In this document: positions 12,621-32,620 of the stretch, in pieces | Layout of the letters: every line of letters starts with the position of its first letter | Position numbering within the stretch: position 1 is the stretch's first letter | IMG/VR virus record: IMGVR_UViG_3300002092_001548 | Location: 32,001-96,000 of that record | Direction: 5' to 3' (one strand) | Length of the DNA stretch: 64,000 nt | DNA from: a virus | Notes under the pieces: generated by a model | Databases searched by the model: none | What the model was told of the DNA's origin: nothing | Seen by the model: only the letters and a program-made list of their open reading frames with translations | Position numbers and translations under genes: made by a program

Positions 12621-14819
12621 ATGGCGTCTCCGCGTGGATCAATTCCAAGTACAAGAAATCGTGTTATTTATAATGCGTTAAATTTGTACGTGGGACAAAC
12701 TGATGCTATATCTGGTGATCATACTAGTTTAGGATCGGTTCGTCAGTTAACTCGTGTACAGAGTTTTGATGAAGATTTTTCTCGTAATTTAGTTGACGTT
12801 AATCGTTATGGACAATTGGCTGCGGTGGATCGTATTGATTCGCAGTCACCAATCGTCAAGGCAAATTTTTCATATTTATTAACTGATGCAAGTAATGAGT
12901 ATTATATGGGATTAACAGTTGGTAATTTATTTTCCGGTATATATCCAGCCTCTTGTATTTCTGACATACTTAATGGAAGTACTGATTCTAAAAATTATTT
13001 TTTAACTGTAGCTGATGATGGTAATGATGCAATTAAATACAAGGGAATGAATACTGGAGTAATTGGTATAGGTAATGCATGTATTACAAATTATTCAGTT
13101 GAGGCCGCAGTAGGTCAGTTACCTAAGGCAGCAGTTTCTTTGGAAGGATTTAATATTAATGTTCTCTATCCGATGCAGGGTAATGGTTATGATCAACTTC
13201 CGTCAGTTGATCCTAATAGGGGAAGTTCTGTAGCTGGCGGCTTTATTATTCCCGTGGGGTCGGGGAGTAATTCTGTAGACCAAGTTGCGGCACTCCAACC
13301 CGGTCAAATGACACTTTCGTTAAGCGGTATTCTTGGATTTAGCTCCACTGATCTCAAGATCCAAAATTTTAAGCTTAATATTCCATTAAATAGAAAGCCA
13401 ATAATAAGAGTTGGAAATAAATTTCCCTCATATCGCCCTATAGAGTTTCCCGTTAAAGCTACCATATCAATTGATGCGGAACTAGGGTCATTATATGCTG
13501 GTGGCGCGCCATATAACGCAACTCCATACAGTGGGCAGCTTAATGTTACTGGTGTTCCGCCTTGGTACTTGAACCCTAATGAAGGCAATACTAGCGTAAA
13601 TAATTTTGATAATATACTATGTGATACTGGTGTTTATAATTTACAAGTTGCATTTAAAAATCCAAACTGTGCGGCAACAGGATCAAATGCATTATTGTAT
13701 CAATTTAATAATTGCCGACTATTGAACCAAAAAGTTTCTACTGCAATTGGATCAAATGCCAAGTTAAGTGCGGAGTGGGAAATGCGCGTGGGCGCGCCAG
13801 AAGATTTAACTAATGGAGTTTTTATATATGGAAATGTTATTAATACGCGCCCTTACACTATAACAACCCTTTTAGTAGGGGGTGGAGGAGGAGGAGATGA
13901 TATTGCTTTTAATAAACAATCATTTCTTAATTACCATTTTAATACAGGAGTTGCAAATGGTGGTGATGGTGGACAGGTAGTTATTGGAAACCTATCCTTA
14001 CAACCGAATTCCACATATGGAATATATGTTGGTCCGGGGGGCGCTGGTGCTGGAAAACAGCAAAATTTTGCTTCTACCAGTTCTGCCAGTACAAGCACTT
14101 CGTCATCAACTTCAACTTCAAGTAATAGTACGATGAACCATGCCATCCAATTTGCAACAGATGGTCAAAGTTCGTATATAAATCATAATGCTCAAACAGT
14201 TTTGTTAGCAAATGGTGGCAAAAATGGTTGTTATAATAATTATACAAGAAGTTATGCTGGGGGTGGTGGAAATTTTTCTTCAAACTTGAGCATGGGGGTA
14301 AATGGTGCACCCGGTTATTTTTCTAATATATTAGGAACTGGGACATATTATGGCGGTGGAGGTGCCGGATATTTAATAACAGGAAATATAACTGGGGTTG
14401 CTGGATCGGGGGTGTTAGGGCGAGGCGGTAATGGTGGTTATAATAATGGAAATGGTCGCTTTTATGGTCAACCGCAACATGGTTCTGATGGTGCCGTGAT
14501 TCTTTCTATACCAGCGTCACGATTCTCTTCGCAGTATGCTTTCGGATATGAAACATTTTTTGCACAAATTTCTGGAACTGTTCTTCATCTTATTCACAAT
14601 CCGAATAAATATGTTGACCTTCCTGTTGGATCGCAAATTACTGGACCTGGCGTTTCATCCGGAACTTATATAACAGCACTTCTTGGTAATGATAATTATT
14701 CTGTAAATATTTCACAAAACATTGGTTATGTATCAATGAATGCTACTTTGGGTAGTGTTTCAAGAAATGGTTCGAATGTAATTTTAACTTATCTATCGGC
14801 GGGAACATATACAGCATAA
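12621..14819 (+). CDS. tail tube protein paralog with C-terminal glycine-rich extension
   Basis: First ~405 aa are closely similar to 15686..16891, followed by a LLVGGGGGG...YYGGGGAG...GSDGAVILS glycine-rich domain. Confidence 0.7.
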   Translation: MASPRGSIPSTRNRVIYNALNLYVGQTDAISGDHTSLGSVRQLTRVQSFDEDFSRNLVDVNRYGQLAAVDRIDSQSPIVKANFSYLLTDASNEYYMGLTVGNLFSGIYPASCISDILNGSTDSKNYFLTVADDGNDAIKYKGMNTGVIGIGNACITNYSVEAAVGQLPKAAVSLEGFNINVLYPMQGNGYDQLPSVDPNRGSSVAGGFIIPVGSGSNSVDQVAALQPGQMTLSLSGILGFSSTDLKIQNFKLNIPLNRKPIIRVGNKFPSYRPIEFPVKATISIDAELGSLYAGGAPYNATPYSGQLNVTGVPPWYLNPNEGNTSVNNFDNILCDTGVYNLQVAFKNPNCAATGSNALLYQFNNCRLLNQKVSTAIGSNAKLSAEWEMRVGAPEDLTNGVFIYGNVINTRPYTITTLLVGGGGGGDDIAFNKQSFLNYHFNTGVANGGDGGQVVIGNLSLQPNSTYGIYVGPGGAGAGKQQNFASTSSASTSTSSSTSTSSNSTMNHAIQFATDGQSSYINHNAQTVLLANGGKNGCYNNYTRSYAGGGGNFSSNLSMGVNGAPGYFSNILGTGTYYGGGGAGYLITGNITGVAGSGVLGRGGNGGYNNGNGRFYGQPQHGSDGAVILSIPASRFSSQYAFGYETFFAQISGTVLHLIHNPNKYVDLPVGSQITGPGVSSGTYITALLGNDNYSVNISQNIGYVSMNATLGSVSRNGSNVILTYLSAGTYTA

Positions 14820-15685: not shown

Positions 15686-16891
15686 ATGGCAATACCCTCT
15701 ACTAGAAATCGCATTATTTATAACGCTCTTAACCTTTATGTTGGTCAGGTTGATCCTGTTACCGGAAACCATACAGTTGCGGGAAATATGAGGCAGCTAA
15801 CTCGTATTCAGAGTTTTGATGAGGATTTTGCACGTAACTTAACTGATATTAACCAGTATGGACAATTAGCCGCTATTGACCGTATTGATCTTCAGGCACC
15901 TACAGTTAAGGCTAACTTCTCTTATCTATTAACAGACGGAAGTAATGAAGATTTCATGGGTTTGGATGTTAATACTGGTCAAGGCCAATATTCTTGTATT
16001 TCTGGTATTCTAAATAATACAAGTGATGCACTAAATTATTTCTTAACAATTGCCGATGAGGGTAATGATGCCGTTGGTTACAAAGGTGCAAATACTGGTG
16101 TTATTGGTATTGGAAATGCTTATCTAACCTCTTATGCGGTTGAGGCTGCGGTGGGTCAGCTTCCAAAAGCAACTGTTTCATTAGAGGGGTTGAATATTAA
16201 CGTTCTATACCCAATGCAGGGTAATGGTTACGATCAGCTTCCCTCAGTTAATCCTGCAAATGGAATTCCTGTTACAGGTGGTTTTATAATTCCAGCTGGT
16301 AGTGGTAATAACTCCTCAACTCAGGTTACAGCCCTCCAGCCCGGCCAGATGACTCTTGCTATTAGTGGTATTCTTGGTTTCTCCAATACAGATCTTAAGA
16401 TTCAGAACTTTAAACTTAACCTACCACTAACACGCAAACCTATCCTAAAATTAGGTAGTAAGTTTGCAATTTCCCGTGTTGTTGACTATCCAGTTAAAGC
16501 AACCCTCTCAATCGATGCTGAGATCGGTAATCTATATGCTGGTGGTGTGCCTTATAATACTGGTGCATATTCCAACCAGACTGGTGTTACTGGCGTTCCC
16601 CCTTGGTATCTTGATCCTACTGAAAATAACCAGAGTGTTAATAATCTAGCAAATGCTCTTTGTGATACTGGTGTTTACAACCTGCAGGTTGCATTCCAGA
16701 ATCCTAATTGCGCTGGAACAGGCACAAACGCTCTTATTTATCAATTCAATAACTGCCGTTTAATGAACCAAAAGATCACAACCTCAATCGGTGCCAACGC
16801 AAAGCTAACTGCCGAGTGGGAAGCCCAACTTGGCGGCCCTCAGGATCTAGTTAATGGCGTGTTTATCTCTGGAAGCTATCCTGCTCTCTAA
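15686..16891 (+). CDS. major tail tube protein
   Basis: 401 aa with its own promoter and terminator and biased codon usage; upstream of chaperones and tape measure. Confidence 0.75.
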   Translation: MAIPSTRNRIIYNALNLYVGQVDPVTGNHTVAGNMRQLTRIQSFDEDFARNLTDINQYGQLAAIDRIDLQAPTVKANFSYLLTDGSNEDFMGLDVNTGQGQYSCISGILNNTSDALNYFLTIADEGNDAVGYKGANTGVIGIGNAYLTSYAVEAAVGQLPKATVSLEGLNINVLYPMQGNGYDQLPSVNPANGIPVTGGFIIPAGSGNNSSTQVTALQPGQMTLAISGILGFSNTDLKIQNFKLNLPLTRKPILKLGSKFAISRVVDYPVKATLSIDAEIGNLYAGGVPYNTGAYSNQTGVTGVPPWYLDPTENNQSVNNLANALCDTGVYNLQVAFQNPNCAGTGTNALIYQFNNCRLMNQKITTSIGANAKLTAEWEAQLGGPQDLVNGVFISGSYPAL

Positions 16892-17000: not shown

Positions 17001-17237
17001 ATGAATGTAGACATTAATAATTTTGTCGTTGCCGCTGTTACTGGCGAGATTAAAAAGCTGTATCTTTCTTTTCTTTATTCTGCTGAAGATTTAGTTAAAA
17101 CTGGAAAACTTTCCGAAGAAGATTACCAATGGTTAAGAAAACGTATTCTTGATTATGGGAATAATTCAATCCGAAATATTGACATTCAACTAAATAGTTT
17201 TGATTTTAGCTTTAGAAACAAAGAAAATAATATATAA
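17001..17237 (+). CDS. hypothetical protein
   Basis: 78 aa ORF with ATG after the promoter motif. Confidence 0.6.
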   Translation: MNVDINNFVVAAVTGEIKKLYLSFLYSAEDLVKTGKLSEEDYQWLRKRILDYGNNSIRNIDIQLNSFDFSFRNKENNI

Positions 17238-17241
17238 ATTT

Positions 17242-17952
17242 ATGGAAAACAAAAAATGGTACTATCAGTTTGATGCGGAACGAGAAATTAAGAATGAGGA
17301 CGGAACTTCTACAAAAGAAAGTTCAAAGTTCGCAATCTTAAAACCAAACCGCAGAACCCGTGAGGATGGTGAGTTATTTTATGCTAGTGAAACATCTCGC
17401 TTTGCGAAGGCAGGAGTTCTTCCAAAGGCTGCATGGAATACAATTCTTTCTAATGGCGGCGGCACTGTAAGTGATGACCAGAAAGAAGAATATGGTTCTT
17501 TGATTGTACAATTTCGTGATAAGAGTTTTGAGTTGCAGTCCTTATTGATTAAATCAGATGGCGAGCGTAGTACTGAAGAGAAGGCACGTTTAGACCTCTT
17601 AACAACTGAAATGGAAGAGGTTCGTCGGAAGATTCAATCTTTTGAGTCTGCGCAAATTAATATTTTTGAGAATACTGCCGAAGCTAAGGCCAGAAATCGC
17701 GCTATCCTTTGGTGGGTTGTTAACCTTGCCCATAAGAGTATTGACGGTAAATTTGTTCCCATCTTTGATGCTGAAAATTTTGAAGCAAATCTTGATAAGT
17801 ATGATGAGATTGAGCAATTGGAAGATGGTGGCTTTATGATGGGTATTCTTCGTAAGTTTACGTATTTAGTTACGCTATGGTTCTTGGGCCGGGCCGAAAC
17901 AGAAGAAGATTTCGCCACTTTCTCTAAGAACCTAGAATCTGGCACCGCATAA
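17242..17952 (+). CDS. tail assembly chaperone-like protein
   Basis: Probable start ATG 17242 (MENKKW); acidic helical protein between tube and tape measure genes. Confidence 0.5.
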   Translation: MENKKWYYQFDAEREIKNEDGTSTKESSKFAILKPNRRTREDGELFYASETSRFAKAGVLPKAAWNTILSNGGGTVSDDQKEEYGSLIVQFRDKSFELQSLLIKSDGERSTEEKARLDLLTTEMEEVRRKIQSFESAQINIFENTAEAKARNRAILWWVVNLAHKSIDGKFVPIFDAENFEANLDKYDEIEQLEDGGFMMGILRKFTYLVTLWFLGRAETEEDFATFSKNLESGTA

Positions 17953-17953
17953 T

Positions 17954-18985
17954 GTGCAAAAAGTCGAATATGGTAAAATTTTTACAGAGATAACAAACGG
18001 TTATTCTCAGGTTACCATTGATGGTAAAGACTATTTTTTTAAACACCCCAGTCAAGCAGAAAACTTTGAGATCTATGATAGATATAATTCTATCTATGCG
18101 TTTGCCAGATCAAGGGGTATTCAAACTGAAGAGGAAAAGGTTGCTACGGCAATAAAGGGCGGATGGTGGACGAAACAAAAAGAAGATGAGATAGAAAATT
18201 TAAGGGAGTTAAATAAAAGCCTTCGACAAACAAGGGAGAAACTCCTGTATCCATCTCAAAAAGCAGATATAGATAAACAAATCACCCGAAACGAGAGAAT
18301 ACTTGTTTTTAATAATAAGCAAAGAAGTGATGCCGTGGGCTATACTGTGGAACACTATGCTGGGGAAAGATTCCAAGACGAAACTATTATTCAGGTAACC
18401 TATAAAAATAAGGAATTAACAGAAAGGCTATTCTCGGATGATAATGAATATTACTATTTATCTGAGGACATTGTGGAGAAGATAAAGAAGGGTTATAACG
18501 CGCACTCTAACCTAATAACACAGAGAAGTATTAAATGTGTGGCTGCATGTGGCTTTTTTCAGAATTTAATCTTTGTGGCGGAGACGAAACCTTCTGACGT
18601 TTGGGGGCGCGCGGCGACTCAGTGTACAAAATACCAATTAGACTTGCTTATATACGGTAAGATATTTAAAAATTTAATTAAATACCGCGCAGAATCAGGT
18701 ACGCCATTGAGTGAAGAAGTTATTAATAGTCCAGAGAAGCTAGTTGACGTATCAGAACACGAGTCTGGAGGGTCAGCAACAAGACAGGAAACTGCTTCAG
18801 TTTCGAGTTCGGATGGGCAAAGCGAAACTAAGGTTTCTAGTTTTGTGGGCGCAACGAAAGAAGACCTAAAAGCGATGGGTGTTAAAGTTGCAAAGATTGG
18901 CGGTAAAAGCTTATTAGACCTAGCGAAAGAAAACGGTGGAAAGCTTGATAAGGGACAATATCTCGATGCGCGGTTAAAGATGTAA
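17954..18985 (+). CDS. second tail assembly chaperone-like protein
   Basis: GTG start; 343 aa helical protein immediately before the tape measure gene. Confidence 0.45.
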   Translation: MQKVEYGKIFTEITNGYSQVTIDGKDYFFKHPSQAENFEIYDRYNSIYAFARSRGIQTEEEKVATAIKGGWWTKQKEDEIENLRELNKSLRQTREKLLYPSQKADIDKQITRNERILVFNNKQRSDAVGYTVEHYAGERFQDETIIQVTYKNKELTERLFSDDNEYYYLSEDIVEKIKKGYNAHSNLITQRSIKCVAACGFFQNLIFVAETKPSDVWGRAATQCTKYQLDLLIYGKIFKNLIKYRAESGTPLSEEVINSPEKLVDVSEHESGGSATRQETASVSSSDGQSETKVSSFVGATKEDLKAMGVKVAKIGGKSLLDLAKENGGKLDKGQYLDARLKM

Positions 18986-19025: not shown

Positions 19026-22000
19026 ATGGCTACAAACGCACAAATTAATGTAACAGCTAATACTAGCGGAGCTCAACGCGCGGTAGAGGCCATATTTAAA
19101 AAAGATTATAATCTTAATGTAAATATTAAAGGTGGGCAGCCTTTAGGGAGAATTACGGGTGACTTAAGTGAGTTTAATAAGTCGATGGAAGCAGCTAATG
19201 CTCGCGTTATTGCTTTCGGCGCTAGCGCCAGTGTTGTATATGGAATTCAAAAAGCATTTCATTCCCTTGTTGACTCGACTGTTGAGGTACAAAAAGCTCT
19301 AAACCAAATACAAGTTGTTCTTAATGTTAGTAATAAAGACATTACTCAATTTGGTGCTAATTTATTTAACGTAGCAAAGCAAACGGGGCAAAGCTTTGAG
19401 ACCGTTGCTGAGGCCGCAACACTTCTTTCTCGTCAGGGGTTAGGGATGGAAGAAACTTTAAAAAGAACTAATGATGCTCTGGTGCTTTCTCGTATTACCG
19501 GAATGGATGCTGCAAAGAGTGTTCAAGCCTTAACTGCTGCCGTTAACTCGTTTACAAGCCAAGCTGTTACCGCCTCTGAGGTTGTTAATAAATTTGCGAC
19601 AGTTGATACCCAGTTTGCTATCGGTGCCAAAGATTTGCCGGAAGCTATTGGTCGAGTTGGTTCTTCGGCGGCACAGGCAGGAGTCTCTCTGGATCAACTT
19701 ATTGCGCTTGTTACCGCAACTCAGGTTGCGACTGCTCGTGGTGGTGCCGTTATCGGTAACTCGTTCAAAACAATTTTTACAAGATTAGATCGTCCAAAAA
19801 CTCAGGCGCTATTGGAGAGTCTGGGGATTGGAACTACAGATGAAAATGGGAAAGCAAAAGGAACTATTGAACTATTACAGTCTTTGGCTGGTGCATATGA
19901 GGGACTAAGTAAAACTCAAAAGGGGCAAGTTGCAGAAAAGGTTGGTGGTGTATTCCAAATTAACATTTTAAAAGCAGCGCTAGCAGATTTAAATAAAGAG
20001 TATTCAGTTTATGGAAACGCGTTAAGGGTTTCTGCTGGTGCAACTGATGACGCTTATAAACGTAATGAGGCGTTAAATCAAACTTATTCGGCACAGTTAA
20101 ATGCCTTACAATTGAATGCAAAGCAACTTTCTGCAAATGTTGGCGAGAAGCTTTTGGGGCCATCAATGTCAAAATTAATTGGCGGCGCAAATTCTTTATT
20201 AGGTGGAATTAACGAGTCTGATTCAAATTCTGTCGGAGCTAAAATAGCAAACGGTATTCTTAGTGGCTTGGGCCAAGTCCTTTCGGGACCGGGGCTTGCA
20301 CTGATTGGCGGCGTTCTATTAAAACTGTTGGTTGACTTCACAAAATTTGCTGCTAGTGGAACAAAAGATTTATTGGGTCTAAATACTGCAACTAAAGAGC
20401 AGGCTGATTTACAAAAAAGTATAACAGCAATTCTTTCCAAGGATCCTTCAATATACAAGCAAATTGAAACTGGTGCGATGAGCGTTAATGACGTTTCTAA
20501 AGCACTTTTAGCTAATTTAAAATTACAGACCGCAGAATTAGAATTACAATCAAAGCTTTCGGCAGAAATAGCGAGTAAGGTTTTTGCTGGTGGCGCAAGA
20601 GTTAGTGGCGGTGTGGCTAGGGTTGGTAAGGCTAGTGGTTATATTCCTAATTTTGCAAGCGATGAGGATATGGAGGAGATGCATGCGAGAATGCTTGGTG
20701 CAAGGAACCCTCGCGCAAAAGAGGGGCGTGGAACTATTGGTGGCAAGAGGTTCCTAATGAATAGTGAGGAGGATGAGATTCCTAATTTTGGAAGTAATGG
20801 TGATTCGGCTGTTATTCCAAGATATGCCGGAGGTTATGTACCAAATTTTGCAGGACGACCAGCAAAAAGAAAGAGGCCATCGGATATATCTGCAGCTGAA
20901 AAAAAAGAGGCTAGAAGAGATGCTGGCCCACCTATAGACCTTGGTTTTACAAATGCTATTTCTTTGATATATGGAAGGAAGGCTGGTGTTTCAGATGCAA
21001 CTGGAACGTGGGAAGATAAAAATACATTCCAAAAATATAAATTAGGTTTTCATAAAGCTGGTTTGAAGTTGCCAGTAAACCCAAAGGAAGCAAATTTAGA
21101 AGATAGGCTTTTACAGTCCTTTATAGATGAAACTAATAATTATATTAAAATATTAGGATCAAATACAAGCATACAAAATGTTTCGCAATTTGCAAATACT
21201 GGATCTGTGAACTCAATGCTTGGTAACATATTTGAAACTGCTGTTAACTATGCGACTGGGCAAAATTTTATTGAAAGAGAGGGCGGTCAAGTTTCTGGGA
21301 TCGATTTTCCTGCTCCCCGCGATGAATTACGAGAATTATTTCATAATGCGCCTGGTCAATATGAAGCAAAACATAATGATTCTCAAAATCTTACGAACGA
21401 TGTTGTTAAAAAGGCTATTACAGCCGGATTGGTGCCAATACCTAGAAAGAGTCATGCTTCTGGCTATATTCCTAATTTTGTAGATGCACTACATGAATCT
21501 ATTTCCCGTGAAATTGGCGCCGGGGCCCCAAAGAGTGGAATCTATGTAAAACAATATTCTGAACTTGCCGGATCTGATAACCCAATGGGGCTTGGTGTTT
21601 TCAATTCTCGCGATGAGGGTTCCCCATCAAAAGAAAAGGGTGCAATTCGTCGTAAGGGTTACGCTGCTGGTTACGTTCCTAATTTCGCAGATGATTCGGT
21701 TTCGAGTGGTGGCGGTGATATGCGCGGCGCAACGACTGCGATGAGTGGAGAGTTGCTGTCTATGGTTACGATGATGGCTGTGGGCAATAAAGGTATAAAG
21801 AAATCATACGACGAGGAATTAGATAACAGAAGAAAAGCCACCGCGGAACTTATAACTGAAAATGAAAAAGAACTAGAAATAAAAAGAAATGCGGCATTAA
21901 AAGCTGTAGAAGATATTAATACTTGGACATCTCTTGAGGCGGAAGCTAGAAAAAGCGGGATAGCGGCAGATATTGAAGAAGCAGAGATGCATGTAAAGCA

Positions 22001-24908
22001 AAATTCTATTTTAAAAGCTGAATATACAAAAGAAGTAGAAGCACTACAAAAAGTACAAACCTCTCTAAATCAAGCTTCTGCTAAATTAGCAAATCCAAGT
22101 TTAAGTACGAAAGCATCGGTTGCTAGTGGTGCTTTTGGTCAGCAGGCTGCATTGGGTTTAACTTTTCTTGGGCCAATTCTTGCGCAAACAGTGGCGGCGG
22201 GTATCGATAAGACAACAAAATCTGGAAGAACTGACGCGGCAGTAGTTAAGGGTCTCGGAGATGTTGCTGCATATGCTGGTACTGGAGCTATGCTTGGGGG
22301 CGCACCGGGTGCCGTAGTTGGTGCTCTTATTGGGTCTTTCAGTGCGCTTAATGACGTAGTTAAAGAAATGAGCACGGATCTTCCTGAAGCAATGGCTAAA
22401 ACTAAAAAGGCATCAGAGGAAAAGACACAAACGCTTAATCAACAAAATACAGTAATGCCCTTACTAGAACAAATTCAAGATATTAGGAAGGGTGCTGGTG
22501 GAGTAGCTGGAACACAGCCAGAAATGGAAATTCGGAAAAAAGTTGATGAGGCTTTGGCTGGTAATGGTACTATGAGAGCTAATGTTGTTGCTAGTGATTA
22601 TAATTTTGATAATGTTAAAAACATATTTATTCAAGATGCAACTATTAAAGCTGATAATTTAAAACAAGCCCAATATGAGCAAACATTAACTGCTAGTTCA
22701 GAAAAAAGTAAAAATAAAGATTTTATTAGTTTTGGGAAGGACTTCAACACCGGTGGCGTAGCGCAGCTTAAGGTTGGAGTAGCAGATAAGGCAGAAAGTT
22801 TGCCGGTACTAGGAAATGTCGCTAAATTGGCAGAAGCGTTTAATTACGGCCCTTTCAGTGGCACGGCGGGAGCACGTCGCGCATTGAATGAAAAACAATC
22901 AAAAGCATCTGTTGAAACTGGGGAGAGTATTGGTGAACATATCATGTCTTCCATGAAGACTTTAGATGAAAAAAGTTTAATGGAAAAAGTGGAAGAAATA
23001 TCTAAGGCTAAAAATTTAACACAGTTATCTGCAGTTAGTGGTAGTGGTGTGTCTGGTGAAGAGCTGTATCGCCTTAACCAATCAGGTGTAAAAGATACGG
23101 ATGTTATTAATGGTGTTATAGATGCTTTCGGGAAGGCTGTGGTTTCTGCGAGAAATGCCGTCGCAAAAGCAAAGGAATTCGATGACGAGTTTGGCCCAAT
23201 CACCGCAATTCTTAAAAATAATAAAACTGCCCTAGACTCTGCTCTTAATGACTTCTCTAAATCATTGAAAATTGGTGCGGATCAAGTAAAATTTTCTGGA
23301 GAATTTTCTCGTGGACGGTCTGAGGCGAAAGAAAATTTTTACGAACAAACTGGGTTTTTGGGTTCCGCAAAAAAATTAGGAATTAGCAATACCTATAATG
23401 GTGTTATGGGTAAAGCTCACGATGAGAATGTTGCTGATATTGTTTCTTCTATTGCGGATGTTATTCCCCATATAACTGAAGGCATGAATATGGGGCCATC
23501 TACGTTTAGCAAGCCAGAGGCGGACGAGAAGGGGGTAAGACCTTCTGTGATTGGCGCGACTGTTGCGGATTTTAATAAAGCGGTTACTTCACAACAAGAA
23601 ATTACTGGTGGAGTAGGGGGTCTTGGTGACATGATTAGTGATATTTTAAGTAAAACAACCGCAACTAGAAATGTAAGTGGACTTGGAAATGTTAAGCAGT
23701 ACGATGTAGAGGGCGCTGTAAAGTCTTTTGAATCAAATCCTGCAATTGCTGGTATGAAAGCTAATGGAGATCAAAAGGAGTATGATAAATTGTTATCCGG
23801 ATTCAAGGGGAGTGTTGAAAGTGCAAATGATAAACTTATTGTTGCGCAGCGTGAGCTTGCAACACAAAGTGCAAAAAAGGTTGACGATTTAATTAAAGCT
23901 ACAATTGAAGGCTTTAACCGTTTTGGGGGTGGAATTCAATCTCTGCTTGATAATTCAAATCCAAATAAATCTGGAAATGATGTGTCTGATGCGGTTGGTA
24001 AACTAATGCTAACGGAAAATAGTAAGGGCGCTTCAAAAACAGATATTGCAAGGCAAGACTTGTCAGTTATCAAAAGTGTGAATACCATGATGGGTGGTAT
24101 TCCCGTATTTGATTCAAATAATCCAATATTTAAGGGACTCACTACGGGTACTCAAGAATCTTTAACAAAAAATTTAGACACGGCAGAGGCAAAGCTAAAA
24201 CAACAGGGACCGGGCGGAAAGCAAACAGTTATGGCCATGGAAGAGGAACTTTTAAAAACAACTGGTGCGGGCAATAGAAACGACGCGTTAAAAAGTATTG
24301 CTGAATTTCAATCTGTAAGGGCTACTGGTCTTAGAACAGATAATACTGATTTAGGTCAGAAGATGTATCAGAAACAAGTTGACGCTACAACCGCCAGATT
24401 AGAAAAATCTGGGCCAGAAGGTAAAGCAATGGCAGCGGCATACAAAGAATCCTCAAAAGCGGGATTAGACCCAACTACCGATGCTGTTTTGGGATTGAAA
24501 GTTAGTTATGATAGAATTGCGCAAAGCCAATTAGACGCTCTTAATAAGCTTACTGCAATAAATGATAAAAATATTGAAAGTAATCCTGAAAATAAAAAAT
24601 ATATGGAATCTAATTTAGATCCAGAAACTCAATCCTCATTTGATCGTATGAATAATCGCGCTAAAGTTAAAGGACAAATTGAAGAGCAGCAAGGCGGTAA
24701 TACACCAATTAATATTAATCCTTCCTTTACCATTAATCTTGCAAGTAATGCCCAAAACGTGCAGGCTAAAATGCCGGAATTTGAGAAGGATGTAAAGGGC
24801 GTAATACATAAACATTTTGGAGACCAAATGACTGCGGCGACAAATGTTGCAAAAAAAGACCCATCATTATATGGCGCGCCACAAACAAGTAAGCAATATA
24901 CAGCTTAA
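19026..24908 (+). CDS. tape measure protein with GY[IV]PNF-delimited inserts
   Basis: 1960 aa, Ala/Gly/Lys-rich helical. TP901-type N-terminal core (VAEAATLLSRQG...ARGGAVIGNSFKTIFTRL) and hydrophobic segments. Confidence 0.9.
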   Translation: MATNAQINVTANTSGAQRAVEAIFKKDYNLNVNIKGGQPLGRITGDLSEFNKSMEAANARVIAFGASASVVYGIQKAFHSLVDSTVEVQKALNQIQVVLNVSNKDITQFGANLFNVAKQTGQSFETVAEAATLLSRQGLGMEETLKRTNDALVLSRITGMDAAKSVQALTAAVNSFTSQAVTASEVVNKFATVDTQFAIGAKDLPEAIGRVGSSAAQAGVSLDQLIALVTATQVATARGGAVIGNSFKTIFTRLDRPKTQALLESLGIGTTDENGKAKGTIELLQSLAGAYEGLSKTQKGQVAEKVGGVFQINILKAALADLNKEYSVYGNALRVSAGATDDAYKRNEALNQTYSAQLNALQLNAKQLSANVGEKLLGPSMSKLIGGANSLLGGINESDSNSVGAKIANGILSGLGQVLSGPGLALIGGVLLKLLVDFTKFAASGTKDLLGLNTATKEQADLQKSITAILSKDPSIYKQIETGAMSVNDVSKALLANLKLQTAELELQSKLSAEIASKVFAGGARVSGGVARVGKASGYIPNFASDEDMEEMHARMLGARNPRAKEGRGTIGGKRFLMNSEEDEIPNFGSNGDSAVIPRYAGGYVPNFAGRPAKRKRPSDISAAEKKEARRDAGPPIDLGFTNAISLIYGRKAGVSDATGTWEDKNTFQKYKLGFHKAGLKLPVNPKEANLEDRLLQSFIDETNNYIKILGSNTSIQNVSQFANTGSVNSMLGNIFETAVNYATGQNFIEREGGQVSGIDFPAPRDELRELFHNAPGQYEAKHNDSQNLTNDVVKKAITAGLVPIPRKSHASGYIPNFVDALHESISREIGAGAPKSGIYVKQYSELAGSDNPMGLGVFNSRDEGSPSKEKGAIRRKGYAAGYVPNFADDSVSSGGGDMRGATTAMSGELLSMVTMMAVGNKGIKKSYDEELDNRRKATAELITENEKELEIKRNAALKAVEDINTWTSLEAEARKSGIAADIEEAEMHVKQNSILKAEYTKEVEALQKVQTSLNQASAKLANPSLSTKASVASGAFGQQAALGLTFLGPILAQTVAAGIDKTTKSGRTDAAVVKGLGDVAAYAGTGAMLGGAPGAVVGALIGSFSALNDVVKEMSTDLPEAMAKTKKASEEKTQTLNQQNTVMPLLEQIQDIRKGAGGVAGTQPEMEIRKKVDEALAGNGTMRANVVASDYNFDNVKNIFIQDATIKADNLKQAQYEQTLTASSEKSKNKDFISFGKDFNTGGVAQLKVGVADKAESLPVLGNVAKLAEAFNYGPFSGTAGARRALNEKQSKASVETGESIGEHIMSSMKTLDEKSLMEKVEEISKAKNLTQLSAVSGSGVSGEELYRLNQSGVKDTDVINGVIDAFGKAVVSARNAVAKAKEFDDEFGPITAILKNNKTALDSALNDFSKSLKIGADQVKFSGEFSRGRSEAKENFYEQTGFLGSAKKLGISNTYNGVMGKAHDENVADIVSSIADVIPHITEGMNMGPSTFSKPEADEKGVRPSVIGATVADFNKAVTSQQEITGGVGGLGDMISDILSKTTATRNVSGLGNVKQYDVEGAVKSFESNPAIAGMKANGDQKEYDKLLSGFKGSVESANDKLIVAQRELATQSAKKVDDLIKATIEGFNRFGGGIQSLLDNSNPNKSGNDVSDAVGKLMLTENSKGASKTDIARQDLSVIKSVNTMMGGIPVFDSNNPIFKGLTTGTQESLTKNLDTAEAKLKQQGPGGKQTVMAMEEELLKTTGAGNRNDALKSIAEFQSVRATGLRTDNTDLGQKMYQKQVDATTARLEKSGPEGKAMAAAYKESSKAGLDPTTDAVLGLKVSYDRIAQSQLDALNKLTAINDKNIESNPENKKYMESNLDPETQSSFDRMNNRAKVKGQIEEQQGGNTPININPSFTINLASNAQNVQAKMPEFEKDVKGVIHKHFGDQMTAATNVAKKDPSLYGAPQTSKQYTA

Positions 24909-30016: not shown

Positions 30017-32620
30017 ATGAATCAAGGCTTTGTAACTATACCTCAAATTAATGGAGAATTTTTTAATGCTTTGCCCTATTCGGTAAATTGGAATTTTAAT
30101 GATGGGACTAGCCCGTCTACATTAACGGTTAATCTCATTAGAGAGGATGGGGTTTATGATGTTGGTGGTATCGAAGCGTCTCTTGGGTATTCAAGAATTT
30201 ATAATATTTCTATAGGCAATGGTTTTAATTTTGTTGGGTATTTAACAGATTATTCTATAGAAAAAACGCCTGAACAAAAATTATTAACATTAGAATATAC
30301 AGATTTGGGCGCAGATTTAGATAGATATTATGTTGGATTAAATAAAAAGTATGGCAATAAGTCTAATAATTTATCGCCTAATTTAATTCTTGTTGGTAAA
30401 GAGTATCATCCATGTGATCCAAATTTAGATTCTAGCGTACCATATAGCTCTACTGCTGGGCTGGCAGTTGATCCGTGTGATCCTTGTCCGTTTATGCCTA
30501 AAGATAAATATAAGTTGGCATGTGACCCCGGTATGGCTAGTTTTAATATTTACGAAGTTTTTTATACATTTAATGAGTTGATAACTCAACTGCCAATTGC
30601 GGCAGACTCCAGTGGAATAATAGTAGATAATCAATTTAGAGCCCAGCATGTTGGAAAATTAAAGGATGTGCTGAGTGCATGGTGTTCTGCTTTAGGGTAT
30701 GCTTATTACTGGGATCCACTTCGGAATCAGTTAATTTTTATAAATCGAAGGTTACCCATTTCAATTCCAGATCCAAATTATACCCAACAAGCAAATGCTA
30801 GTATTATTGATTTTAAATATGGAGCAACGGTAAAGTCTACGTATTCCAGAGGATTTTTAGGATATTTTTCAAAAGAAGGGGCGGTTCATGATTATACATG
30901 CGCTCTAGATCCGTATGATAGTTTTGTGGATACGAAACCACTTACACTGCTAGATATAATTGATACTTCTGATGGTGGAACTGAATTCTCTGGTGGTGGA
31001 TATACTTATGCAGATAAAGTTCAAATTACTACAGCGCTATCTTATTATAGTAGGGCATTAAGGGACTCTTGGTTATGGTTTGAGTATTGGGGTATTACAG
31101 ATGATAGTTCCGCACAACAAGCAGCAGGAAAAACTTTGACAGATTTTGGTAATATGGTTATTAAGGATGTTTTTTCTCCAAATGCAAAATCCAATGTTTA
31201 TGTAAGGCTAACCTCTCCTGACGTTTTAAGCATAGCACAATTAACTTCGCTAGCTGGTAAAAATTTTTATTTTATTGTTGCAAAACAAGATGATGATCTT
31301 GCAGAGAAGCAATTTCACAATGTCGAGGGTGTTGCAAAAGGATTTTTAGGAAAATATTGGTATGCCTATTATAACACTCCTATTCCCGGTGGTTCAAATG
31401 ATAAATCAAATATTACTGCTGAAACGGCAGACGGAGGAAGCGCTGAGTGGCATTTAGCCGGAACAAATATTACATCTCTTCCTATTTTTGGTTTTGGGTA
31501 TAAACCATCGGGTAACTCTAAATTAGGACAGTTTGCAAAACAAGTGGCTGCTGATGAATCTGCTAATAATAATACAATTCAAAATCTGCAATCTCAGGGG
31601 GGAAATAACCAAACCGGGCCGCAAGATATCGCACTTACATCTTTTATTTTAGCCCAAAGAGATGCGAAGTGGTCTCCATCCGATGATCAAATTAGTTGGT
31701 ATCAGTCATTATTTCAATGGAATCAAGATATGCTACCCAAGATAGTTGGGGTTGATGGGCGTCCAGATATTTTATTTGATCCAGATATTGCACCCTATGC
31801 CAAAACCGATACTTCAATAAAGTTATTTTTAGTGGTAGAGTATCCGGGTAATTATACATTTTCGCAATCTAACGCTCAACATCCGAATGAGTATACTTCT
31901 CCAAAAAAGAAAACAAAAGTAGAGCAAGATTCTTTGGGTAATCCTATTACACTTTATTATGGGAATTATGGGCTTCGTAATCCTACCACAACACAGATTA
32001 CCGTACCGGGCATGACAATAACTCTTCCCGTGGGGGCTTTTGGGACTTCTGACAGTCCAAACATAACTGCGGCCGCAATGGGAAGTTGGAGTAATCAATC
32101 TTCATCAAGTCCTACTTATACAGTGTTTGTAAATGCTAGCCAATCATTTAAAAAGGTTCTTCCAAAGATTGAAGTTAGCGCGGGATGGGCAGCAGAAACA
32201 ACAAATGTTGCGCAAATAGATTATCATTATAAGGAGGCAAGAGAAGACAACTTGGATTTAGTCAATGGTGGTAAATTATGTACGCCAGCAAATGATAATA
32301 TTTATAAATACTTTGAGCCATTAGCTAACAATGCAGTAACTTCGCAATCCAGTCCTCAAAGAAAAATGTCGTTTAAGCTGCCGGGCATATTTCCAGCACA
32401 ATATTCAGTAGGAGAAGGTTTGGTTGGAATACAAATATCTTTAACAAGTAATGGATTTTTTACTAGCTATTCTTTTGAAGATAGGATAATTCAGCCACCT
32501 AGTGATGAATATATTATGGAAAGCGTTATTGCGAAAACTATTGCTAGGGGGCATAAGGGCGATAGTCATGTCGTGGGAAACAATTCTCAAATGGTTGGGA
32601 GGTCTCTAGGGTTCGCATAA
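30017..32620 (+). CDS. tail tip/baseplate hub (Tal-like) protein
   Basis: 867 aa; PSTLTVNL, FVGYLTDYSIEK, LKDVLSAWCSALGYAYYWD are hub-like segments. Confidence 0.55.
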   Translation: MNQGFVTIPQINGEFFNALPYSVNWNFNDGTSPSTLTVNLIREDGVYDVGGIEASLGYSRIYNISIGNGFNFVGYLTDYSIEKTPEQKLLTLEYTDLGADLDRYYVGLNKKYGNKSNNLSPNLILVGKEYHPCDPNLDSSVPYSSTAGLAVDPCDPCPFMPKDKYKLACDPGMASFNIYEVFYTFNELITQLPIAADSSGIIVDNQFRAQHVGKLKDVLSAWCSALGYAYYWDPLRNQLIFINRRLPISIPDPNYTQQANASIIDFKYGATVKSTYSRGFLGYFSKEGAVHDYTCALDPYDSFVDTKPLTLLDIIDTSDGGTEFSGGGYTYADKVQITTALSYYSRALRDSWLWFEYWGITDDSSAQQAAGKTLTDFGNMVIKDVFSPNAKSNVYVRLTSPDVLSIAQLTSLAGKNFYFIVAKQDDDLAEKQFHNVEGVAKGFLGKYWYAYYNTPIPGGSNDKSNITAETADGGSAEWHLAGTNITSLPIFGFGYKPSGNSKLGQFAKQVAADESANNNTIQNLQSQGGNNQTGPQDIALTSFILAQRDAKWSPSDDQISWYQSLFQWNQDMLPKIVGVDGRPDILFDPDIAPYAKTDTSIKLFLVVEYPGNYTFSQSNAQHPNEYTSPKKKTKVEQDSLGNPITLYYGNYGLRNPTTTQITVPGMTITLPVGAFGTSDSPNITAAAMGSWSNQSSSSPTYTVFVNASQSFKKVLPKIEVSAGWAAETTNVAQIDYHYKEAREDNLDLVNGGKLCTPANDNIYKYFEPLANNAVTSQSSPQRKMSFKLPGIFPAQYSVGEGLVGIQISLTSNGFFTSYSFEDRIIQPPSDEYIMESVIAKTIARGHKGDSHVVGNNSQMVGRSLGFA

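Follow-up and report, generated by a model that had tools for sequence, protein, structure and literature searches.

A repeated connector peptide marks the sites of unit exchange in the tape measure protein of uncultured aquatic phages

The tape measure protein of the uncultured freshwater phage studied here contains four copies of a nine-residue connector peptide, and it is at this connector that whole units of the protein are added, dropped or exchanged among related phages. The connector is kept by selection on the peptide and not on the DNA. Since it is conserved as protein, we regard it as a cassette junction with a job at the protein level. With modest confidence, we propose that the tape measure acts as a cassette rack, in which units are joined by a standard connector that plays a role in their handling or delivery.

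The window, i.e., the whole stretch of viral DNA that was analysed, comprises 64,000 nucleotides (positions 32,001 to 96,000 of the IMG/VR record IMGVR_UViG_3300002092_001548). Its longest open reading frame (ORF) encodes the tape measure protein, P0001, and is located in a same-strand block of large ORFs. The features of the gene are as follows:

19026..24908, + strand: tape measure protein gene (P0001); 1,960-aa ORF, PF10145 match of 102.1 bits, ten PHROG tape-measure families on aa 6-536
19374..19949, + strand: PF10145 PhageMin_Tail domain (Pfam match), aa 117-308, within the conserved N-terminal ~535 aa
20253..20360, + strand: Gly-rich hydrophobic stretch, aa 410-445, ~90 aa upstream of the array; Kyte-Doolittle 19-residue mean up to 1.98
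20631..20657, + strand: motif 1, ASGYIPNFA, aa 536-544; motif scan, model residues 1-23 at pLDDT < 50
20658..20825, + strand: joint unit A, aa 545-600, modelled as one helix and four strands and holding EIPNF and VIPRY; model residues 26-78, block pLDDT 65-84
20826..20852, + strand: motif 2, AGGYVPNFA, aa 601-609, an observed exchange junction; motif scan, model, drop in identity to P0007, variant contig departure at nt 20855
20853..21455, + strand: 201-aa globular unit, aa 610-810; alignment of 18 sequences, stand-alone model with pLDDT 85.9 and pTM 0.78
21456..21482, + strand: motif 3, ASGYIPNFV, aa 811-819, an observed exchange junction; motif scan, model, variant contig departures at nt 21455 and 21485
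21483..21662, + strand: joint unit B, aa 820-879; R-E, N-P-x-G, N and D-E all invariant in an alignment of 34 sequences
21663..21689, + strand: motif 4, AAGYVPNFA, aa 880-888, end of the array; motif scan, model residues 360-385 at pLDDT < 50
22143..22364, + strand: second group of Gly/Ala-rich hydrophobic stretches (hydropathy), aa 1040-1113, downstream of the array

Judged by its sequence, P0001 is a TP901-type tape measure: PF10145, its sole above-threshold Pfam match, scored well over the gathering cut-off of 33.2 bits, and the best of the PHROG matches to its N-terminal part had an E-value of 2.2e-48. This part was 60-95% identical among the relatives that were compared with P0001. The placement of hydrophobic stretches was also shared. 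Of 256 relatives, 228 had one at most 200 aa before their first motif and 204 had one at most 350 aa after their first array, but only 12 had one inside the array. Upstream of the tape measure gene lie two ORFs (17200-17952 and 17954-18985) and an ORF taken to encode the tail tube protein (15686-16891). When 19 structural ORFs in the neighbourhood were scanned with PHROG and Pfam for a protease or chaperone, hardly anything matched: the hits were a weak one to a portal, Gly_rich_2 and two function-unknown PHROGs. P0001 itself has no HExxH or HxxEH, and Pfam scans returned no peptidase family.

The connector has the form A-x-G-Y-[IV]-P-N-F-[AV] in all four copies (aa 536, 601, 811 and 880 of P0001), with the core G[YF][IV]PNF starting at aa 538, 603, 813 and 882. 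The sequences and start positions of the full motifs given in an earlier note on this DNA proved exact in the motif scan, which also placed the partial motif, EIPNF, within joint unit A (aa 584, nt 20775-20789). The unit sizes in that note, roughly 55-60 and 200 aa, were confirmed as well, the segments between motifs being 56 (aa 545-600), 201 (aa 610-810) and 60 aa (aa 820-879) long. The same note had placed basic residues before each full motif. This holds for three motifs, where the net charge of the 12 upstream residues was +3, +2 and +4, but is weak for motif 2, which is preceded by one Arg at a net charge of 0. From the composition of P0001, 6.5e-5 copies of G[YF][IV]PNF would be expected by chance. 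A six-frame scan detected [YF][IV]PNF nowhere else in the window, and a looser pattern had only three further matches in the whole 138,208-bp contig, all of them chance hits that were interrupted by stops or on the opposite strand.

An AlphaFold2 monomer model covering aa 521-905 of P0001 predicted three folded units of 56, 201 and 60 aa, separated by unstructured stretches. All four connectors lay in stretches with pLDDT < 50 and were docked on nothing. Within joint A, EIPNF and VIPRY were modelled as neighbouring strands (model residues 62-68 and 73-78). Homotrimer modelling of aa 528-618 (three copies of motif 1, joint A and motif 2, run without controls) gave a score of 0.00, which is evidence neither way. 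Searches with the three-unit model by Foldseek (PDB) and VIA-align (48,161 chains) recovered helix hairpins alone, none of them beyond E 0.03 or Z 4.5. Against PDB sequences, neither the profile of joint B nor a single-sequence search retrieved anything at E up to 10.

The 201-aa unit carries what appears from an alignment to be a nuclease-like signature, without fold or Pfam backing for an enzymatic role. E737, D760, A781-K782 and K796 were invariant in 18 of 18 sequences, and position 780 was E or D, which gives the E ... D ... (D/E)-x-K pattern of PD-(D/E)xK catalytic sites. In the model of the unit, D760 and the ExK lie in very short strands with a helix between them. A fold search with this model recovered no nuclease or other family (best VIA Z 3.7; Foldseek E >= 0.036 against the PDB and >= 0.029 against BFVD), a result that does not show the fold to be new. 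Pfam at E up to 10 gave only a chance-level match to VNG_1110C, and the profile of the unit hit eight PDB chains at E 0.007 or weaker (lectins, a toxin), which we took as chance. ESM Atlas features for aa 610-810 pointed to no family, with a best score of 0.83, below lead level.

The connector is widespread. One search retrieved 796 matches and another 646 clusters at 50% identity, nearly all of them proteins of 1-4.6 thousand aa. Tape measures of uncultured aquatic phages, in their hundreds, have one to 11 units fenced by it, and the spacing between motifs ranges from 56 to >1,000 aa. When the inter-motif domains were catalogued, as the earlier note had advised, variable content was found: 263 proteins contained 988 units of 128 sequence families in 127 architectures. 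Arrays open and close with two conserved small joint units, and units that bear no relation to these joints are bordered by the motif too. The relatives include a GNAT unit with Pfam support, a unit family in which all 12 members (12 of the 263 relatives) bear HExxH, and two unit families with Walker-A-like motifs. Most unit families could be linked to no known family. The interpretation in the earlier note is thus supported in part: units vary widely within the group, but the array of the present phage is no expanded cargo set, its two small joints and near-universal 201-aa unit being the minimal and commonest architecture. Of the 263 proteins, 135 contain joint A, 201 the 201-aa unit and 214 joint B.

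The connector sequence itself is strongly constrained, at seven of nine positions, among them an aromatic, Pro and Phe. G, P, N and F were kept in at least ~90% of >600 sites, though the proteins are otherwise 25-40% identical. Even so, 51 of 600 G[YF][IV]Pxx sites (~8%) lacked Asn, which means that none of the residues is an absolute requirement at all sites. At 630 PNF sites in 120 relatives, K/R was the commonest residue or among the commonest at -10 to -6, and D/E was common at +4 to +7. In 77 viral loci, no motif was detected outside the tape measure ORF (about 1.2 Mb scanned overall).

Among cultured phages, the array had no match by megablast or tblastn in 50,697 deposited phage records. 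With the whole of P0001 as query, tblastn against the same records aligned nothing but aa 40-419, and identity was 24.6-27.4% among the matches listed. These searches therefore turned up no cultured model. Eight loci were located in GTDB genomes, all on MAG contigs labelled as Flavobacteriales (two), Proteobacteria, Paceibacterota, Bacillota, Neomarinimicrobiota, Halobacteriovorax and Nitrospinales. We read these as phage contigs binned into MAGs and therefore name no host.

Evidence that the connector is an exchange junction, as the earlier note had suggested, came from relatives whose flanks are 95-99% identical and which differ by whole units, with breaks within a few nt of the connector codons. 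P0007 is 95% identical to P0001 over aa 1-610 and unrelated directly after ...PNFAG, the identity falling from 97.5% (aa 561-600) to 25% (aa 601-640). P0003 and P0023 share the first unit with P0001 and have different units downstream; in P0003, joint A is 100% identical despite 78% identity in the flank. In five independent pairs of IMG/VR loci, nucleotide similarity began or ended within a few bases of the motif codons. In the pair L019/L022, nt 1-1781 were 97.3% identical, and the motif occupies 1762-1779. In L038/L046, nt 1-1893 were 96.2% identical and the motif occupies 1876-1893; similarity returned at 2691, the next motif starting at 2692, and unit by unit the identities were 99, 86, 22, 91 and 92%. 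L028/L059 had only two units in common (92% and 97%), in proteins otherwise 22-38% identical. Inter-motif segments that stay invariant across relatives, the outcome that would have told against exchange, were not what we found: whole units are replaced. With breakpoints resolved to a few nt, this is a clean natural case of domain shuffling.

Exchange was also visible in wild populations. Variant contigs in lake and freshwater metagenomes, from two studies other than the probable source, leave the P0001 sequence at nt 20855, 21455 and 21485, and their loose ends, by our reading of the translations, continue into units present in P0003 and P0007. One wild variant departs at nt 21799, ~110 nt beyond motif 4 and away from any motif. 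Two runs in this comparison had no cover over nt 21981-24541, a gap from which we draw no conclusion. A metagenome scan for DNA of P0007 returned 74 pattern matches, none of which was confirmed. Overall, 64% of HSP ends were at most 10 aa from a motif, compared to 5-11% by chance; this figure is inflated, as it is dominated by the right-hand ends of the conserved N-terminal block and as a conserved motif lets BLAST extend its alignments across it, so we rely on the pairwise comparisons. Whole-insert swaps exactly at the connector among close relatives suggest that the tail probably carries a variable complement of proteins into the host.

We envisage the cassette rack as follows. Behind the conserved N-terminal part and a hydrophobic stretch lies an array whose units fold on their own, and A-x-G-[YF]-[IV]-P-N-F-A, set in a flexible linker, connects neighbouring units. 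The tape measure would exit the tail ahead of the DNA, its hydrophobic stretches would go into the membrane, and the array, exposed to the cell, would present units that act there: in the present phage one with the nuclease-like signature, in relatives possibly also GNAT-type, HExxH-bearing and Walker-A-bearing units. The connector would serve as a common handling signal for all units. Recombination between connectors of co-infecting relatives, aided by short microhomology, would exchange units, and the survivors would be filtered, since only in-frame joins at the linkers would give a working protein. Among the points against the rack are that three copies of the folded 201-aa unit would have to fit the tail tube, and that the changeable cargo is seen in relatives, the present phage having only the core architecture.

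As to what the connector does, our tentative preference is for a maturation or release site at which the protein is cleaved, with docking or threading close behind. That no protease was found in P0001 or in 10 neighbouring structural ORFs counts against cleavage, as does the restriction of the HExxH unit to 12 of 263 relatives.

It is possible, if somewhat doubtful, that the connector is instead a structural, docking or threading element that is not cleaved, the units staying tethered to the tape measure after ejection. It might bind the lumen of the tail tube, a tail assembly chaperone or the protein's own N-terminal domain, or connectors might zip together as beta-strands, allowing folded or unfolded inserts to be carried in the tail without disturbing assembly. 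The constraint on seven of nine positions, with an aromatic, Pro and Phe, resembles that on a binding epitope, and the adjacent EIPNF and VIPRY strands of the joint A model suggest that the motif can form strands. Joints at both array ends and the lack of a detected protease in most family members fit this reading as well, and gp96 of phage P23-45 is described, in the part of the source consulted, as active while fused to the tape measure (PMC10770324). Against it, all four motifs are unstructured and undocked in the monomer model, a spacing of 56 to >1,000 aa cannot match a fixed tube repeat, and a candidate partner is not among our findings.

A narrower version of cleavage, in which the connector is a self-sufficient release site cut during passage of the tape measure across the envelope of the host, seems unlikely. 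The cutter would be a universal host protease, the protein's own N-terminal domain or Asn-driven self-cleavage between N and F, of the type carried out by Asn lyases. Such a plug-and-play injector would free strain-specific nuclease-like, acetyltransferase, peptidase and P-loop units ahead of the DNA and gain new ones simply via recombination at the connector. Signal peptidase, which prefers sites such as A-x-G, and prepilin peptidase, which prefers a basic leader and then G before F/Y, were considered as cutters; both were dropped as main readings, because no hydrophobic segment adjoins each site on either side.

We consider it very unlikely that the motif works chiefly as a recombination signal in the DNA, either a conserved nucleotide linker or the target of a site-specific enzyme, with the peptide as a by-product. 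Breakpoints do coincide with the motif to a few nt, and copies share 9-21 nt of in-register identity. However, the median shared run between connector copies was 9 nt, and codon identity between copies within a gene was close to that predicted from codon usage (381 observed vs. 353 expected, n = 735, z = 2.2). Synonymous codons differ among the four connectors of the window, and amino-acid conservation of the connector far exceeds nucleotide conservation. The motif thus does not qualify as a conserved element of the DNA.

That the repeats are functionless leftovers of an internal duplication of joint plus linker, with neutral passengers as inserts, is scarcely credible: joints A and B are alike in outline (a helix with R-E or E-E, then strands), so duplication did occur, but the retention of G, P, N and F in otherwise divergent proteins, the motif's presence beside units unrelated to the joints, its absence outside the tape measure ORF in the viral loci and the purifying selection seen on it all argue against this account.

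Tape measures are usually viewed as rulers and channel formers, occasionally with a fixed enzyme; in this large group of uncultured aquatic phages, the tape measure would be a rack of interchangeable units. A text search of the literature, with supplementary files outside its scope, found no description of a tape measure array with a repeated connector among the papers listed, and the motif strings matched only unrelated proteomics. The closest known cases belong to the same TP901-1-type N-terminal family (PF10145) and are long tail proteins that are ejected during infection. In T5 pb2, a cut after R1127 separates the hydrophobic stretch from the adjacent enzymatic domain (PMC10038345), and the Tmp of mycobacteriophage TM4 carries a peptidoglycan-hydrolase motif (PMC1796659). 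Each has one fixed motif or domain, and the portions of these sources consulted describe neither a repeated connector nor cassette exchange. In Thermus phage P23-45, the N-terminal part of gp96, a 5,002-aa tape measure, is a virion RNA polymerase that transcribes pre-early genes, i.e., a working enzyme that serves in the host directly upon ejection (PMC10770324). As described in the consulted part of that source, gp96 differs in carrying a single large fused enzyme; a repeated connector, an array and unit swapping are not mentioned there.

Polyvalent proteins (Iyer, Burroughs, Anand, de Souza, Aravind 2017) combine many unrelated effector-type domains, including GNAT, in one giant protein that is thought to enter the host with the DNA and is predicted to be processed into separate units, according to the parts of the sources consulted (PMC5512222; PMC7824862). 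By comparison, P0001 has one 201-aa unit and two joints, and several unrelated domains are found among its relatives, with their up to 10 units from 128 families. Polyvalent proteins, however, are packaged in the head or act in transfer (Iyer et al. 2017 has 0 occurrences of the word 'tape'), the consulted parts describe no fencing peptide for them, and their predicted processing relies on a zincin-like peptidase domain, which P0001, with neither HExxH nor HxxEH, does not have. If the units of the rack are delivered, the array would be a tail-borne counterpart of these head-packaged proteins and a rich source of early-acting effectors. The connector, already portable in nature, would lend itself to building chimeric tail cargo in phages of the laboratory.

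Two further systems resemble the array. Viral polyproteins have one short conserved protease-site peptide at every domain boundary; unlike for them, we know of no protease or cleavage for the connector array. Polymorphic toxin cassettes exchange alternative modules at a conserved junction. Their modules are C-terminal toxin tips with immunity genes, whereas the units exchanged here are internal to a structural tail protein.

The window corresponds to bases 32001–96000 of a single 138,208-bp contig with a G+C content of ~37%, on which nearly all large ORFs lie on one strand. No tRNA or tmRNA genes were detected in window positions 1–64000. The sequencing runs containing the window's sequence were labelled as freshwater or lake-water metagenomes. 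The window's tape measure protein (TMP), P0001, had a single Pfam match above threshold, to the TP901-type tape measure domain (PF10145, aa 117–308, 102 bits), which places it in that family, and its first ~540 residues were matched by ten PHROG tape-measure families. When 19 large structural ORFs (window 135–38631) were scanned against PHROG and Pfam, only four had any match: a weak portal match, Gly_rich_2 in 12621–14819, and two PHROGs of unknown function. This virion module is thus very far from described phages. Deposited phage genomes matched P0001 at aa 40–419 only (24.6–27.4% identity among the 25 matches listed), with no match in the array region described below. P0001 is the TMP of an uncultured phage that diverges deeply from those described.

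A pattern search located the nine-residue peptide A-x-G-[YF]-[IV]-P-N-F-A (hereafter, motif or connector), which fences a run of units (the array):

19026..24908, plus strand: TMP gene P0001, 1,960 aa
aa 410–445 of P0001: hydrophobic stretch upstream of the array
20631, plus strand: motif 1, ASGYIPNFA
20775, plus strand: partial motif, EIPNF
20826, plus strand: motif 2, AGGYVPNFA
21456, plus strand: motif 3, ASGYIPNFV
21663, plus strand: motif 4, AAGYVPNFA
aa 1040–1113 of P0001: hydrophobic stretch downstream of the array

The four motifs lie exactly where an earlier note, made from the sequence alone, had placed them, and the two ~55–60-aa units and one ~200-aa unit that it described measure 56, 60 and 201 aa (joint A, joint B and the 201-aa unit, respectively). 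Basic residues, said to precede each full motif, were found before three of the four. From its composition, P0001 should contain 6.5e-5 copies of G[YF][IV]PNF. No further copies were found in any frame of the window, and a looser pattern applied to the whole contig gave only three chance matches, in stop-interrupted or opposite-strand frames.

A word-index search with aa 520–900 yielded 796 proteins, and an exhaustive HMMER search yielded 646 clusters at 50% identity. Nearly all relatives were 1,000–4,600 aa long, with the N-terminal TMP part in common. PNF occurred 630 times in the 120 matches listed, versus ~19 expected, and the consensus residues were conserved among these matches (A 75%, G 93%, Y/F 88%, I/V 96%, and final A 74%). 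At sites anchored on G[YF][IV]P, with NF not required, NF was present in 549 of 600. The number of motifs per protein ranged from 0 to 11. Some long relatives carried extra copies far downstream (aa 1,800–3,250), often paired ~65–70 aa apart (e.g., P0033, P0052, P0086, L007, L020, and L067), which points to a second array near the C-terminus in some TMPs. Outside the TMP ORF, the motif was absent from 77 IMG/VR loci (part of ~1.2 Mb scanned in six frames), and it is thus no general tag on separate cargo genes. Motif-bearing TMP genes were also present on MAG contigs (loci L078–L085) assigned to Flavobacteriales (two), Proteobacteria, Paceibacterota, Bacillota, Neomarinimicrobiota, Halobacteriovorax, and Nitrospinales; these are most likely phage contigs binned with cellular genomes.

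The diversity of the units was assessed in 263 proteins of at least 1,500 aa, pooled from 229 database proteins and IMG/VR loci; 12 near-duplicate loci and every protein below this length were excluded. Cataloguing the domains between motifs, a check proposed in the earlier note, showed that they do vary: 988 inter-motif segments formed 128 sequence families, 73 of them singletons, and the proteins showed 127 architectures. The grammar of the array was constant: a small joint, one to several globular units, and the small joint B. The window's architecture was the commonest (60 of 263 proteins) and is the minimal form of the array. Hydrophobic stretches were found upstream of the array in 228, downstream in 204, and inside it in 12 of 256 proteins. 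Most unit types were without any family. Among the extra units of relatives, a GNAT acetyltransferase was supported by Pfam. HExxH was present in all 12 members of one family (P0054 aa 1530–1723 and 11 others) that had no Pfam match; this family may be a zincin-type peptidase within the array. Two families (P0003 aa 1059–1230 and P0141 aa 596–751) carried a Walker-A-like GPAG[VS]GK[ST]T, with only weak P-loop matches in Pfam (AAA_24, E = 0.035).

Exchange of units at the motif was seen in proteins, nucleotide sequences, and metagenome contigs. The relative P0007 was 95% identical to P0001 over aa 1–610 (97.5–100% at aa 481–600) and unrelated right after ...PNFAG. The P0003 version of joint A was 100% identical from motif 1 to motif 2, with a flank of only 78%; P0023 kept joint A, followed by a third, different unit. 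Nucleotide comparisons of independent pairs of IMG/VR loci gave 97.3% identity over nt 1–1781 for L019/L022 (motif 1762–1779), 96.5% over nt 1–1878 for L047/L051 (motif 1861–1878), and 96.2% over nt 1–1893 for L038/L046 (motif 1876–1893), in which similarity returned at 2691 and the next motif began at 2692. Two further pairs, L028/L059 and L016/L066, had single units in common, with similarity bounded by the flanking motifs. Per-unit protein identities (99-86-22-91-92% for L038/L046 and 97-24-96% for L019/L022) read as a plain mosaic, and L028/L059 had two units at 92% and 97% although their conserved parts were only 22–38% identical.

Variant contigs, which show presence only, came from lake and freshwater sequencing runs belonging to two studies, neither of them the likely source. 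One departed from the P0001 gene at nt 20855, 3 nt past motif 2, and continued with what translates as the start of the unit after motif 2 in P0007 and P0003. Another departed at nt 21485, 3 nt past motif 3, into the start of the P0003 Walker-A unit, and one joined at nt 21455, 1 nt ahead of motif 3, preceded by the end of that unit. In a 22.6-kb lake-water contig, the break was at nt 21799, ~110 nt past motif 4, and the whole C-terminal 2.9 kb was replaced (2,878 other letters versus 2,920 in window 21799–24720) before the sequences fitted again from nt 24720. Thus, not all breaks are at motifs, and close relatives can differ by replacement of the gene's C-terminal half as well.

An AlphaFold2 model of aa 521–905 (36 aligned sequences, mean pLDDT 70.8) contained three folded units. 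Runs longer than five residues with pLDDT <50 (model residues 1–23, 81–98, 289–298, and 360–385) each held one of the four motifs, which makes the motif a short linear element of flexible linkers, outside the domain cores. Joint A was modelled as one helix and four strands, with motif-like EIPNF and VIPRY on two strands. Joint B had invariant R-E, N-P-x-G, N, and D-E in an alignment of 34 sequences and no known relative. Modelled alone, the 201-aa unit was confident (pLDDT 85.9, pTM 0.78), with no noteworthy match among solved or predicted viral structures. In 18 aligned homologous units, G679, G733, F736, E737, D760, A781, K782, and K796 were invariant and position 780 was E or D, which matches the E..D..(D/E)xK signature that characterizes restriction-endonuclease-like nucleases. 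The topology of the model differs from the canonical one, and none of the family searches with this unit supports nuclease membership.

The analysis shows that the array combines a standard connector in flexible linkers, separately folding units, cassette-wise exchange at the connector, peptide-level selection, and hydrophobic brackets. According to PMC10770324 and PMC7824862, TMPs are expelled before the DNA and make up the channel through the envelope. T5 pb2 is reported to be cut at a point separating a hydrophobic stretch from the enzymatic domain (PMC10038345), and P23-45 gp96 shows that an enzyme located N-terminally in a TMP can work in the host (PMC10770324). By analogy with TMP expulsion and these two proteins, the array is predicted to become exposed to the cell, where its units would act. 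We tentatively regard the connector as a possible cleavage or release site. A non-cleaved docking or threading element is almost as likely. That the connector is a DNA signal is improbable: codon sharing between motif copies within one gene was about what codon usage predicts (over 735 comparisons, 381 observed vs. 353 expected; z = 2.2), the longest stretch identical in register between copies had a median of 9 nt (maximum 21), and the window's four copies differ at synonymous sites. It is therefore the peptide that is under selection, and the DNA offers microhomology only. The earlier reading of the motif as a processing or recombination junction for exchangeable cargo is partly supported, in that units are swapped as cassettes at the motif. 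Recombination at any point within or close to the connector, after which only in-frame joins located in linkers survive, best accounts for the sharp junctions. A connector without function is hardly credible.

Within the searchable literature, we found no description of the fencing peptide and cassette exchange. In its workings, the array resembles the polyvalent proteins of Iyer et al. 2017 (PMC5512222), but P0001 lacks their processing peptidase, and the array sits in a tail protein, a setting absent from that paper. The array is a variant of TMPs with embedded domains and of polyvalent proteins.
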